64,000 nt of DNA from a virus (IMGVR_UViG_3300029305_001467:36520-100519); one strand, 5' to 3'. Counted from the stretch's first letter, positions 16,284-64,000 are shown. Translations and numbers: made by a program. Notes: a model not told the origin generated them from the sequence alone.

Positions 16284-17808
16284 TACTTCACTCCTTTCAA
16301 TTTTCTCCATAGAACCCCAGATTTAAGTATGCTCACGATAATTTTTACCAATATACAATGGTTCTGAGTGACCATAAACAGAGGTTGGTAATTCATTCTT
16401 TGCAAGTTCGTAATAACAAAACCATTTACCGTTATGACATTTTAAATCTTTTGACAAATCTACATCATATATCTTCTTAATATTTTCAATCCAGTTATTA
16501 TATATTTCTTCGTCTGTATTTCCGAAAGCCACTGAATGATACATCCATCCACTCCAACCTTCAGAACCCATTTCACAAGTTGAAACTAAATACACTAACC
16601 ATGTTTTCTTTTCTATTTGAATCACCTCAATTCTTTTCAGTAAGTTTCTTATATAACTTGTCTGCTTCATCTTCAGTAAATACCTTTACAATTTCCATAC
16701 TATCATTAGTTTTACGACTAACCATCAATACAGAAATATCTTTCTGATATTTACCTTCATAAGCAATTGTTAAAACATCTTCCATATAATTACTTCTCCA
16801 CTTAATTTAAAAACCACCTTGTAAACCACTCCAATCGGTATTACAATCTCTATAGGCTTCACTCTTAGCTTCTCTGATTGCTTCCTTGACAACACCAAGA
16901 GATAAAATATCTTTCTTTAACCTCTTATTCTCTTTTCTTAGTCGTTCAAGTTCTGACTGTTCTGAGCCAACCTGATGTTCTAATTCGTAAACATACCTAC
17001 GCAACATTCTACCTTGCTTGTTTTCATCCTTTTCTTCTACAATTTCTCTCCATCTTTCAGAAGTTGGTTCTACATCATATGCCATATTCTCACCTCAATT
17101 CCACCTTAAAACGTTTGATTTATTGTTTTTCTTTCACAATATCAAAGAACTTGTATGTCTTATTTAACTCATTGAATCTATTAACGATTACTGTATGTCC
17201 TATCAAATCTAATTTATCTTTACCAAACTTCATTACAATATGACACACATGTAAATCACTTAGCATATGTACAGGAATTAAAGTGCCATCTTCTTTCTCC
17301 CAATAATACTTTTCACTATTTGCAATTGTTTTATTTTTATCACAATCTTCTCGCCAATCATTGCTCATAAATTCTCCTTTCAGACCACCATGAAATCCCC
17401 GTTTCATCGTTATGCATACTGCTCGTCAGTAAACCCAATCAAATAATCATACTTTTTTACATCTCTCATTACAATGATTACATGTATTCTATTCTCTGTT
17501 TCGCAATACAATATACGGCTATCTCTTCTACAGTGCTTTGCGGTGCTTTCGATTTCATACTTAATTATCCCATTTACATCTTCTTGGGTGTAATCCCATA
17601 CCCCTTCTTCAACTGGGTCTTGCCAACAGTTATGATACAATCCTTCGCAGCAATATGACCATAAGCACATATATGGTTGCTTGTACTTCTTTAATAACTC
17701 AAGTAGCCTCTTTTTGGATATGTATTTGAACTGTAAGTCCAGGCAGAAGATATCTGAATATTGCTTCTTTGCATAGTTGAGAACCTTGTATCTTTCTTTA
17801 CGTTTCAT

Positions 17809-18567
17809 TTAATCAAACCACTCCTTCCTTACTTTTACATATTCTCTATAGTAAGGATAATAAGTTGTTGTTCCCGTCTGTTTTTCACACCACTTATTAA
17901 GAAATTCTTGAAGTTCGCCTTCGTCACAAATATTCTCTCTTGCATCATCGTGTAGTTCATCACATGCATTTTCAATGATACTTTCTGCATCCAGTGACAT
18001 CTTAATTTCTTCGCAGTTCCATAATACCTTTGGAATACGTTCTTCAAAGTAATCATCGAAATTCCTATCATGTTCCTCTTCTTCATCTAAATACAAGTCC
18101 CACCAATAATCTATAAATTCACCTATATCTGCAAAATATTTACCTGATTCTTCATCATACATATAATAAGAAGCATTCTGAATTTCAATCTCTTTAGCCT
18201 TATTGATAGTTTCTTGATACTTAATTCTTTTTTCTTCGTTCCGTTGCTCTCTAAAATCATCGCAATTGCAAGTGTTTGTACCCTTAGATAATATTCTTCC
18301 GCAGAATTTACAAGTTTTCAGTCTGCCAAAATAGCACGTTGGACACAGTGTAAAATATTCATTATTGTACCAGTCTAACTTAAAAGGCTTTTCTATATCA
18401 TCCTCTTTAATGCCAAACCGGTAATCTTGCCTAATAATACCCAACCCACTACAAACAGGACAAATAATCTCATCGTCCTGCAAATCTTTTTTTAATGTAT
18501 CTGGAAGAATTCTCATGAGTTCGTCTACTGTATTCAATGATATATGTTTGATAACTAACACCTCCAT
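17809..18567 (-). CDS. Zn-finger-containing hypothetical protein
   Basis: CPVCSGLG, CPTC, CKFC motifs; true start possibly ATC at 18552. Confidence 0.6.
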   Translation of the reverse strand: MEVLVIKHISLNTVDELMRILPDTLKKDLQDDEIICPVCSGLGIIRQDYRFGIKEDDIEKPFKLDWYNNEYFTLCPTCYFGRLKTCKFCGRILSKGTNTCNCDDFREQRNEEKRIKYQETINKAKEIEIQNASYYMYDEESGKYFADIGEFIDYWWDLYLDEEEEHDRNFDDYFEERIPKVLWNCEEIKMSLDAESIIENACDELHDDARENICDEGELQEFLNKWCEKQTGTTTYYPYYREYVKVRKEWFD

Positions 18568-61317: not shown

Positions 61318-62247
61318 TTATGCGAACACTCCTTGAATTGTTTCGAACAATTTATTACTTGTTACTTCTTTTGCTATTTCTTCAACCAAATCACTCCCCC
61401 ATTTACTTGAATAAAATCCCCAACAAGAATCCGTATGTTCATCCCAATTCATATCATCTTCTTCAAGTACATCAAATCCATTTTCTAACGATGCTTGATC
61501 ATCCATATCCAACTCATCAATAATATAACCATAACAATCTCCTTGAAGATATTGGTCATACATATCAACTTCATCTTCCATCCATAATCTAGCAGCACAT
61601 CTCCAATTTCTATCAGTTACTTTAATCCAATTTCCATTTTTGGATTTTATTTTACCACCACACCCAAGAACATCTTTCTTAGTTGTGTAAATCCAACCGG
61701 CTTGACCACTATCCCAAGGGCAACTAAAACCACTTGTTCTCATAGTTATCCCACCATGCTCGTAAACATTAAGTGGTAAACACTCAATCCCATTTCTTTT
61801 TAACAACTTCCACTTATCTTCGAATGACATAGCATCAATAATATCGTCAATAAGATGTTCAAGAGGATTATAACTCGCAATAATTCCGTGATGAACTTCA
61901 CTACCAGTCCACCAATATCTGTAATATCCCCAAAGTTCCCAAACACATTCACTTCTGTTGTACTTCAATTCTAATCCATTAGATGTTTTCTTTGCCTTGA
62001 TATAGTTAATAATTGTTTTTTCGGATACATATTTTCTCACTAAATCATTCACAAAATCTTCTGGCTCAGAATAATTATTTTCCTTATAGTCTCCAAGTTC
62101 ATATCTGTTCCACCAACACATCATATGTCCAATATTTCCATCCATATTATATCTCGGATTCCACGGTTGTTCATCTCTTTCAATGTGAATTCTACAAACC
62201 TTACCATCACAATCTTTGAAATATCTGTAATTTTCCATATCAATCAA
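61318..62247 (-). CDS. Conserved phage/MGE hypothetical protein
   Basis: YEHGGITM...CPWDSGQAGWIY motif; long ORF with RBS. Confidence 0.6.
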   Translation of the reverse strand: MIDMENYRYFKDCDGKVCRIHIERDEQPWNPRYNMDGNIGHMMCWWNRYELGDYKENNYSEPEDFVNDLVRKYVSEKTIINYIKAKKTSNGLELKYNRSECVWELWGYYRYWWTGSEVHHGIIASYNPLEHLIDDIIDAMSFEDKWKLLKRNGIECLPLNVYEHGGITMRTSGFSCPWDSGQAGWIYTTKKDVLGCGGKIKSKNGNWIKVTDRNWRCAARLWMEDEVDMYDQYLQGDCYGYIIDELDMDDQASLENGFDVLEEDDMNWDEHTDSCWGFYSSKWGSDLVEEIAKEVTSNKLFETIQGVFA

Positions 62248-64000
62248 CCATCCTTTCTATAATTCTTCCCAATAATCAATCAGACCAGGCAATACATAAC
62301 CTAAATCTAAACTCGTGTACTCTTCAAACTCTTCAAGTTCCTTCATTTCATCTTCCGTTGGAATCTTTGCACCCATGATGTAATACACATCATCTTCACG
62401 CCCACCGTTGTCTAAGATTATATGTAGTGTATTTTCTAAAGCTCCATATAAATCTGTTGTGCCGTCTGTTGCAATTGCATTCCGTGTTACATATTCATTG
62501 TGTAAGTGATACTTTACAAGGACTTCTCCATCTCCAAGTAAGTCTAATAAGTTAATCTTTGTCATACTGTTTGCCTCCATTTCTCCATCAAAAAAACAAG
62601 TAACATTTCTGCTACTTGCTTCTTCTCTGTTTGTTGTTTGATTACTCAACCTCTACATTAAAACACATCTTACCACATGCAACATCCCACGAGCACAACT
62701 CTAAATCAAGATACTCTTCTGGGATATCTGATAGAAACCCAATGTATACAAAATCTTCTTTGATTAAATCGTATACTACACATCTAAATACGCTGTCCGT
62801 TGCTAATTCAACAAAATCTCTTACTGTAATCATCATATTAGTCCTCCTTTATATCAACCCCAATCTTGGCAAATCTTTAAAACCAACATATCATCAATGA
62901 ATGTTTGGTCAAGTAATGCGCAATCAATTGGATTCTCTTCTCCAATACATATTCTATCGAACTCCCACTCTCCATCGAAACTTTTCTCTTTACTTATTTC
63001 GATGGAAGTATTGTTATAAATCTTTTCGTTTAATGGATTATCATTAAAAGGGATAAAACCCATTTCTTTTATTCCATAATACGTCAAGATTTTTACATTG
63101 ATATTACTTTCGCTCATAATAATCCTCCTTTTCTTCTTGAAACAGTAGTTTTATTGCCGTTTTTATTCTTCATTTTCCTTGATAATATCAATCAAATTTT
63201 CAAGGTTATAATGTGCCTGTTCTCTTGCATAGTCCGTTATTTCCTCAACTGACATTTCTTCAAGTAAAACTCTGTCTAACTCTTCAAGTTTCTTTATAAG
63301 TTCGTCTCTGCTCATTCTCATTTCCTCCATAAAATACACGATTTAACGCTTTATATAAAATCCTTTATCTCCGTTTGTACTTCTGTAAAATAACTGCTCT
63401 GCTGATGCAGAACTTCCATATTCGTAACTACAAGGTACTCTGAAAAAGTCTTTCCCGTTTTCAGATGTGTAAATCTGTCCACCCTTGCAATAAATTTCCT
63501 TTGCTTCTGCTTCTGTAATTTCAATATAATCCATATTAATCAACCTCCATTCGTTATTAAGTATATCACAACCGGTTCCGTTTGTCACTCCCACCCTATT
63601 GAATTACCATTCAAAATAACTAACGACTTTCCATTCTGCTTCTCTTACATAATCGTATCTTCTCTGCTTTTCCATAACTGCTTCAGAAATCTTAACTCTC
63701 TTTGCACTCTCGTCTAATTCCATCTTTACCGTAATCTGTTTTGACGGAATATCACATACCCAAATATGAGAGTCATCAGTCCCATACCACTCTGCTTCCA
63801 TGTCATATTCCATATAAAACATTTCCCATGCTTCGTCCATCCGTCTCTTAATTTGTTTTTCTGTCATTGCCATATTTATTTACCTCCTTTAGAATTACAA
63901 TTTCATGGTGATTTATAACAATGCAATGACCGCATTTCTATACATCGTTCTTCCATACATCTCAACTTCTTTCTGATACACAATTCCTTTGATGTGTTCA

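Follow-up and report, generated by a model that had tools for sequence, protein, structure and literature searches.

Position-labelled dyads at the gene junctions of a large SPbeta-like gut phage as probable crossover points

How large phages keep the order of their genomes while most of their small accessory genes turn over is an open problem, usually answered by rare illegitimate recombination followed by selection or by homologous exchange at conserved flanks. The question arises in IMGVR_UViG_3300029305_001467, a 100.5-kb virus record in IMG/VR judged to be about 62% complete, where short dyads with a 6-bp centre recur at gene junctions. We analyzed bases 36520-100519 of this record, a stretch of 64,000 nucleotides referred to here as the window, with positions counted from its first letter. 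The source is a large SPbeta-like gut phage within a large family of 130- to 200-kb gut phages, which we retrieved through their NAD-dependent DNA ligase; several of the family records are flagged as proviruses. All window genes lie on the minus strand, as do the sites described below, and the G+C content is about 33%. An original prediction, made from the sequence alone, held that these dyads carry stop codons at a fixed position in one arm and that their nonredundant spacers act as positional addresses for exchange between related phages.

Spacers shared in order between relatives

Read on the gene strand, the site is an 18-bp dyad, W-TRRAW-N6-WTYYA-W, or in fuller form C-N-W-TRRAA-N6-TTYYA-W-N-G, and the gap between the arms is fixed at 6 bp. 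Exact matches to TRRAA-N6-TTYYA number 43 in the whole record, versus 3 for the reversed control, and 40 in the window, versus 3.05 in shuffled sequences. A weight-matrix scan (at least 11 bits) places about 65 sites between 12.3 and 63.9 kb of the window (12319-63906), at 60 of the 132 gene junctions; in 20 or 21 of them the site contains the stop codon. The sites are confined to the accessory/early region; in the structural and replication parts, matrix matches occur at chance level only.

Among the close relatives in IMG/VR, a single lineage, represented by records G001 and G002, is dense in the motif. Its ligase is 72% identical to that of the window, and 6 of 44 open reading frames (ORFs) near the ligase gene are common to both. 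G001 has 35 sites, and the spacers of 18 of them are identical to that of a window site; the reverse-complement control gave 0 matches and shuffled spacers a mean of 1.1. All 18 shared spacers are colinear. Four-fold sites of the core genes common to the two phages are 53% identical, and a hexamer would survive neutrally with P = 0.02, which predicts 0.76 of 35 spacers against the 18 seen. The arms of address partners agree at 9.78 of 12 positions versus 9.21 of 12 for nonpartners. The genes around the shared spacers have turned over. At 17 of the 18 junctions, neither flanking ORF pair is homologous, upstream or downstream; 9 of the 110 window ORFs between shared addresses have a homolog in the same G001 slot; and slot lengths differ up to 4-fold between the two phages (e.g., 419 versus 1351 nt). 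Five colinear window addresses recur in G004, a more distant relative (ligase identity, 54%), while G003 and the clade of G011 show no window addresses beyond chance, address sets being otherwise clade specific. Tabulated across relatives, as the original prediction had suggested, the spacer thus travels with the locus and not with the upstream or downstream gene, and this sequence comparison strongly supports the idea of a positional address.

Along the window, the spacers common to G001 are TTTCGG (15783-15800; G001:41489), where the upstream flank and left arm are identical and the right arm and downstream sequence differ; CTGGGG (16309-16326; G001:41101); CAAACG (17106-17123; G001:40214); CGGGGA (17390-17407; G001:39346); CCTGTG (19265-19282; G001:38956); GAAATG (19481-19498; G001:38271 and G004:51636); TCTTGG (19870-19887; G001:37236); CCAGAG (20289-20306; G001:35885); and CAACTC (23492-23509; G001:35190). 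They continue with TCGAGA (29657-29674; G001:30403), the one address at which a neighboring gene is orthologous in the two phages (60 aa, upstream); TCTGCG (31868-31885; G001:26753); TCCGCA (32298-32315; G001:26049); CGAAGG (36207-36224; G001:19142); TGTCCG (45603-45620; G001:14001); GGATTA (51303-51320; G001:10516); CTCGTA (56935-56952; G001:8256, G004:77706, and G031:72510); TCAGGA (57673-57690; G001:7583 and G004:79042); and TGACGA (58607-58624), which is identical at 18 of 18 bp to G001:6620 with both flanks unrelated. The address TCGGAA (57473-57490) is common to G004, G031, and G025. Beyond the sites at 17106 and 16309, the leaders (17078-17105 and 16280-16308) are also identical to G001 over the 16 to 18 nt that reach the ribosome-binding site (RBS), although unrelated ORFs come next; exchange thus does not always have its boundary within the dyad.

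Inversion and homology breaks at the sites

Two sites in inverted order lie upstream of a PAPS-reductase-like gene in the window: switch site A (15016-15033; AGAAAA-TTATAC-TTTTAT, with one mismatch in the outer arm) and switch site B (14877-14894; ATAAAA-GTATAA-ATTTAA). Their spacers, TTATAC and GTATAA, are reverse complements of each other. The homologous pair in relatives (protein identity, 54%) has the spacers TAGATT and AATCTA; the switch spacers change between lineages yet stay complementary. The segment of about 120 bp between the switch sites is reverse-complemented in sequence L086 relative to L084 and L085, with the outer arms staying in place. Since the outer arms are unchanged, the crossover would fall in the 13 bp of spacer and inner arm that the two sites share. 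In addition, the left flank of the first switch site is unrelated between L084 and L086, which makes this site a mosaic joint as well.

In one near-identical ENA contig, the gene after a 141-aa ORF starts 186 nt downstream rather than 129 nt, the spacing that a flipped 14877-15033 switch would give. Three other near-identical relatives (L081 to L083) match the window at 100% identity in every aligned stretch, which is the full length for L081 and L083, and add nothing. The ends of L082 (1-17 and 2558-2628) do not align to the window, which may reflect a variant joint or an assembly artefact inside the gene at 19498-19851.

Homology breaks were compared within a close clade (G005, G011, G012, and G040), whose members are 92 to 97% identical along half their length. 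Ends of high-scoring segment pairs lie at most 15 nt from a site 5 to 10 times more often than random positions do. Breakpoints fall at 30 to 57% of junctions with a site versus 15 to 29% of junctions without one, an excess that is significant in two of the five pairs (p = 6e-4 and 3e-3). At the nucleotide level, homology ends at the site edge or at the boundary between arm and spacer.

The pattern extends to the Bacillus phages SPbeta (here L156, positions 50001-100000, and L157, positions 100001-134416) and phi3T (L160). SPbeta carries 34 copies of TAAAA-N6-TTTTA, and it shares 35 spacers with phi3T, versus 1 in the control. About 17 of these shared spacers stand at homology breaks. Six form 18-bp islands between flanks that are unrelated on either side, at SPbeta positions 69423, 88399, 92393, 116414 (partner, phi3T 107931), 117534, and 118469. 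Sites with spacers common to phi3T stand on both sides of the SPbeta methyltransferase region, and the stop codons of yoqG, yoqS, yoqY, yorS, yorT, mtbP, yorZ, yosC, yosF, and yosR lie in the left arm of TAAAA-N6-TTTTA. One family of dyads (WTRRAW-N6-WTYYAW) that occupies the junctions of small early genes and marks homology breaks is therefore present in the window, G001, G003, the G011 clade, SPbeta, and phi3T. A de novo dyad search near the ligase gene of motif-poor relatives yielded nothing clear.

Inversion between two copies and homology breaks at the sites make it very probable that the dyads are crossover points of some kind. We favor, at a probability of roughly 0.6, the more specific reading that they are targets of a site-specific recombinase whose exchanges depend on matching spacers. 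The covarying switch spacers and the conserved spacer order speak for a need for spacer identity; joints of one arm with different spacers, to which we return below, speak against it.

Arms, stop codons, and the composition and operator alternatives

The original prediction named 17 genes whose stop codons occupy site positions 15 to 17, and all 17 are indeed ORF ends with TTA, TCA, or CTA at these positions, i.e., TAA, TGA, or TAG on the gene strand. Sixteen of these stops lie in sites of at least 11 bits. Among sites with an address given above, the stop is TAA for CAAACG (17120-17122), CAACTC, and CTCGTA; TGA for TCTTGG; and TAG for CCAGAG, TCTGCG, and GGATTA. The others are GCAGCA (21283-21300; TAA), CTAATA (22740-22757; TGA), TATCAA (25672-25689; TAA), TAGACA (39399-39416; TAA), TTAGAT (50113-50130; TAA), TAATAG (50874-50891; TGA), TCCATG (54443-54460; TAA), CCCGCA (54928-54945; TAG), and CGTGTA (63329-63346; TAA). 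The 17th stop, TAA at 30937-30939, belongs to a weaker copy, TAAAT-ATTACA-TTTCAT (30923-30940), which scores less than 10 bits and falls below the matrix-scan lists. Five further sites with the stop in the arm were not in the earlier list: CTGGGG at 16309, TACTAA (35146-35163; TGA), CAAAAG (44489-44506; TAG), ACCTTA (55510-55527; TAG), and TCGGAA at 57473 (TAG).

Across 57 junction sites, the commonest stop offset is 0 (20 sites), another peak is seen at -6 (10 sites), and 51 stops stand at or upstream of the arm. The arm is not used as a stop codon at about two thirds of the sites. Members of the -6 class always read TAR-C-N-W-TRRAA, with two in-frame stops one codon apart and an invariant C at -2; examples, given as site plus upstream stop, are 17390-17413, 19265-19288, 47563-47586, 49437-49460, and 57673-57696. 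In the genome of the window, 32 of 47 strict sites are in frame 0 (p = 1.2e-6), as are 13 of 27 in G001. In four genomes of another site-bearing clade, the frame-0 share is about one third, as in a uniform distribution, and offset 0 is still the mode at 20 to 27%. The left arm itself reads TAA, TAG, or TGA, which is why stops stand either at it or 5' of it. As it does so in one frame and the genome is compact, a stop in the arm comes nearly free. We therefore regard it as mostly a by-product of the stop-reading arm, to which the lineage of the window adds some frame bias.

A first alternative is that the whole motif is nothing but a stop codon, an A/T-rich linker, and an RBS, or else an RNA hairpin for translational coupling. 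The left arm does double as a stop codon, and the RBS lies next to the right arm, as the original prediction had noted: a Shine-Dalgarno-like word begins a median of 2 nt past the right arm. Furthermore, in the four genomes just mentioned, stops in the arm are no commoner than random frames predict. Yet the right arm, TTYYAW, lies outside the RBS and is conserved as well as the left arm, and the counts over controls given above are far from those of a composition artefact. Read outward, 50 of 55 left arms and 54 of 55 right arms have a stop codon as their triplet, in line with the earlier claim that the arm triplet is mostly a stop on both strands; TGG occurs in none. The dyad also reaches a C at -2 (52% versus a 14% background) and a G at +19 (63%, even where the Shine-Dalgarno sequence lies further off). 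Stop codon plus RBS composition, which the original prediction had named as the finding that would undo it, does not explain the motif, because the RBS-side arm, the C, and the G are conserved independently. Composition also leaves the arm unread as a stop at most sites and the conservation of spacers across genomes unaccounted for. As for a hairpin of RNA or DNA, symmetric arm positions vary independently (chi-square p, 0.6 to 1.0), with no covariation between arms, and five A-U pairs would be unstable; this independence fits two half-sites that are each bound by protein. Three half-site variants, TAAAA, TGAAA, and TAGAA, occur on both arms and TGGAA never does. Taken together, an artefact or hairpin origin is highly improbable.

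A second alternative is that the dyads are operators of a dimeric phage regulator like MrpR, which acts at the SPBRE motif of SPbeta, that they control the downstream genes, and that the recombination signatures are incidental. Dyad symmetry with independent half-sites, a constant location immediately upstream of the RBS at about 60 genes, and restriction to the accessory/early region would all suit an operator, and SPbeta offers a precedent in a protein of the recombinase fold that binds a repeated palindrome and does no more. The 15-bp SPBRE motif is found at about 10 promoters and bound by MrpR (YopR), a repressor with the tyrosine-recombinase fold and without the catalytic residues (Kohm et al. 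2023, PMC10516654). The likeness to our sites thus lies in the phage group and in a repeated intergenic palindrome read by a protein of this fold. However, the SPBRE palindrome of SPbeta, ATACA-N7-TGTAT, found upstream of aimR, yonP, yonX, yopV, and yosX, differs from the junction dyad, which exists besides it and is more numerous; the two are therefore not identical elements. An operator has no need of a locus-specific spacer, whereas here spacers are kept 6/6 while arms drift, nor does it account for the inversion between two sites. Sigma-70-like promoters in the window (102 matches versus 95 expected) do not coincide with the sites, the strong ones lying in larger gaps, and terminator-like hairpins are likewise located elsewhere. 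We consider an operator role improbable.

The centre of the site has its own composition: the spacers have a G+C content of 46%, versus 33% for the genome. Across the array at 12319-63906, position 6 avoids A and position 11 avoids T. The original prediction found no repeated spacer, and there are in fact no duplicates among 76 sites. Column shuffles of these 76 sites predict 1.3 duplicates, with a probability of 0.25 for none, so uniqueness within a genome is by itself no evidence. Target-site duplication by transposon-like cassettes was also considered and rejected, as no spacer is repeated on both sides of any gene.

Candidate enzymes, short homology, and known systems

Returning to the recombinase reading, we propose that the sites are core-type targets, most likely of a tyrosine-class recombinase working as a homodimer, each with two inverted 6- to 8-bp binding arms around a 6-bp crossover region. 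Their anatomy is that of a minimal tyrosine-recombinase core site, in which two inverted arms surround an overlap of 6 to 8 bp: the arms are symmetric, and the centre is fixed at 6 bp and enriched in G+C. Since all sites have generic arms and a spacer of their own, only those with equal spacers would recombine productively. Unique spacers would thereby keep co-oriented sites of one genome from deleting the genes between them, and the single same-spacer pair in inverted order would become an invertible switch. When related phages meet, by co-infection or as residents, the same spacer at the same position in both would allow in-register reciprocal crossovers, and accessory genes could be reassorted slot by slot with no need for flanking homology. 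A stop upstream of the crossover region would stay with its gene whatever is joined downstream. The fullest form of this idea, a natural recombinase-mediated cassette exchange in which generic arms and conserved 6-bp position labels give slot-wise, in-register reassortment and protection from self-deletion and a matched inverted pair serves as a gene switch, seems to us about an even bet. The genes reassorted in this way would probably be those of defence and counter-defence.

The array itself contains a candidate enzyme. The gene at 51958-52962 (minus strand) encodes a 334-aa protein that matches PF00589 (47.4 bits versus a cut-off of 27.1) and phrog_216 (1e-30) and has the catalytic series R, K, HxxR, H, and Y. 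Its motifs RRISDT, KTGK, HSLRK, GH, and LDY are conserved in a G001 homolog (33% identical), and the protein, unlike MrpR, has all of the catalytic residues, so that it is apparently a catalytically complete tyrosine recombinase, as judged from its sequence. The gene of the G001 homolog ends right at a shared address, TGTCCG, which lies directly 3' of it. By sequence, the window protein matched no solved structure, and BLAST against SPbeta YomM, YopP, and YopR gave nothing significant. A C-terminal motif that follows the catalytic tyrosine, NSPI..LK.EDF, is kept in the G001 homolog and resembles NPLYEATQEDF in SPbeta yopP (L156:28691-29767). A second tyrosine recombinase gene lies outside the window, in its own record (G000:C1:25049-25645, in a 402-aa frame; PF00589, 9.9e-27), and its product is probably the integrase. 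The window protein, this second enzyme, and host Xer proteins are possible candidates for acting at the sites. Co-occurrence of motif and recombinase is uninformative as evidence: PF00589 genes are found in 43 of 49 family records, and almost every record has 1 to 5 of them.

Several observations weigh against recombinase targets with spacer-matched exchange. The closest orthologs of the window recombinase (54 to 60% identity) sit in records with only 1 to 8 sites; the site-rich G003, G004, G025, G031, and G038 have no detectable homolog of it, while other PF00589 genes are present; and among the family records compared, no recombinase was found to covary with the sites. Well-studied tyrosine recombinase sites have arms of 9 to 13 bp, versus 6 to 8 bp here. 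In the close clade, three of the five junction tests were not significant, and most breakpoints lie away from sites. Some joints in that clade combine the same arm with different spacers, which is unexpected under strict spacer matching. A gene at 18728-19222, 68% identical to G001 36387-36914, occupies different slots in the two phages: after CCTGTG in the window and between CCAGAG and TCTTGG in G001. Genes can change slots. Finally, in laboratory hybrids of SPbeta and phi3Ts, 15 of 16 junctions fell in regions of homology (Dragos et al.). The one nonhomologous junction (N1 in the supplement of Dragos et al.) lies 9 nt from the phi3T dyad with the spacer TATTCC (L160 7922-7948, i.e., phi3T 107922-107948); this placement needs a 540-bp shift of the phi3Ts coordinates and concerns the phi3T side only, and we take it only as a lead.

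Many of these points would suit the main rival, in which the same 18-mers are joined by general or short-homology recombination at conserved junctions, through a phage annealing protein or host RecA and with no dedicated enzyme, in the manner proposed for the PeSLs of T4-type phages. The arms would then serve another protein, and spacers would persist since only 18/18 matches recombine efficiently. This rival predicts breakpoints at sites and conserved addresses equally well. SPbeta has genes for a Sak4-like annealing protein and a RecJ-like exonuclease, the laboratory hybrids were mostly joined in homologous regions, and the lack of a covarying recombinase is what it expects; joints with identical arms and different spacers fit a 6-bp microhomology. 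Nevertheless, 18 bp with partner arms that differ is very short for homology-driven exchange, and the rival leaves the dyad form and its fixed 6-bp gap unexplained, as it does a 120-bp inversion between inverted repeats of 13 to 18 bp with covarying spacers. On balance, we hold it to be unlikely, if less so than an operator role. The original prediction had offered as its own alternative that the enzyme tolerates heterologous spacers; this may hold in part, because some junctions join different spacers at the boundary between arm and spacer.

Sites of this kind invite comparison with several known systems. Heterospecific lox and FRT sites have identical arms and different spacers, and only those with equal spacers recombine, which permits in-register exchange without deletion. 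The phage sites would share this scheme, but that of lox and FRT is a laboratory design with 13-bp arms and 8-bp spacers, whereas in the phage dozens of addresses would form an array in nature. Small invertible switches are flipped by tyrosine recombinases such as RecV of Clostridioides difficile. The matched pair resembles them in being a short segment at a gene start, bounded by short inverted repeats and found in both orientations; it differs in that its repeats come from a site family that also includes about 65 co-oriented junction sites, among which there is no recombination. The TAGAA half-site may resemble the arm of Bacillus dif.

The pdif modules of Acinetobacter plasmids consist of accessory genes flanked by XerC/XerD-type sites (Mindlin et al. 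2019, PMC6449649). Both systems have many short, two-armed, recombinase-type sites with 6-bp centres in accessory regions, with site-bounded modules in different contexts and an enzyme that need not be encoded beside the sites. In contrast to the phage sites, however, pdif sites have 11-bp asymmetric arms (a XerC side and a XerD side), their modules lie between oppositely oriented sites, and unique centres conserved in an ordered set have not been described for them; the phage sites have symmetric arms of 6 to 8 bp and stand at nearly every second junction, and the order of their centres is preserved from phage to phage. The PeSLs of T4-type phages, which combine a sigma-70-like promoter with a terminator stem-loop, are also repeated intergenic motifs, located in hyperplastic regions, that mark the ends of insertions, deletions, and replacements and have been proposed as drivers of modular shuffling (Arbiol et al. 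2010, PMC2839356; PMC4122927). Their recombination is driven by homology, can pair any two copies, and produces mini-circles (PMC2839356; PMC4122927). The dyads, given the promoter and terminator results above, are not PeSLs: they contain neither element, a difference that also counts against the short-homology rival, and their centres are locus specific.

Integrons were the analogy drawn by the original prediction, and the likeness is real in so far as small co-oriented genes, imperfect palindromes, a stop often inside the site, and a nearby tyrosine recombinase gene are found in both. Integron attC sites, however, measure 57 to 141 bp and recombine in the form of folded single strands with extrahelical bases; they move together with their cassette, and attI is a partner for all of them. 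The phage sites measure 18 to 22 bp, their arms vary independently, and their spacer stays with the locus; we found no distinct attI-like site, no attI/Pc platform, and no single-strand folding signature. The analogy therefore fails. The interpretation of the original prediction as a whole survives in the address idea, backed by the inversion and the homology breaks, and loses the weight it had placed on spacer uniqueness, on stops in the arm, and on integrons. Our full-text literature search, which did not cover the 1999 SPbeta genome paper, found no description in phages of address-like conserved spacers or of this dyad.

Several other genes of the array deserve mention. A phage sigma-factor-like protein (phrog_1740, 8e-12) is encoded at 41679-42242 (minus strand), adjoined by an HNH endonuclease gene at 43260-43967. 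Two proteins like the GmrSD N-terminal domain are encoded at 48069-48875 and 40527-41666 (both minus strand), and a PemK-type toxin gene at 44805-45152 has an oppositely oriented helix-turn-helix gene beside it.

If the dyads are position-labelled crossover sites, they would provide a dedicated mechanism for the orderly reassortment of genes. They would then also account for the placement of module boundaries between genes and give heterospecific lox/FRT cassette exchange an equivalent in nature. SPbeta and phi3T carry the dyads and grow on Bacillus subtilis 168, so the idea is testable with existing genetics. The dyads could become tools for inserting genes at chosen slots of a phage genome, and in annotation they make exchangeable slots easy to mark on the contigs of gut phages.

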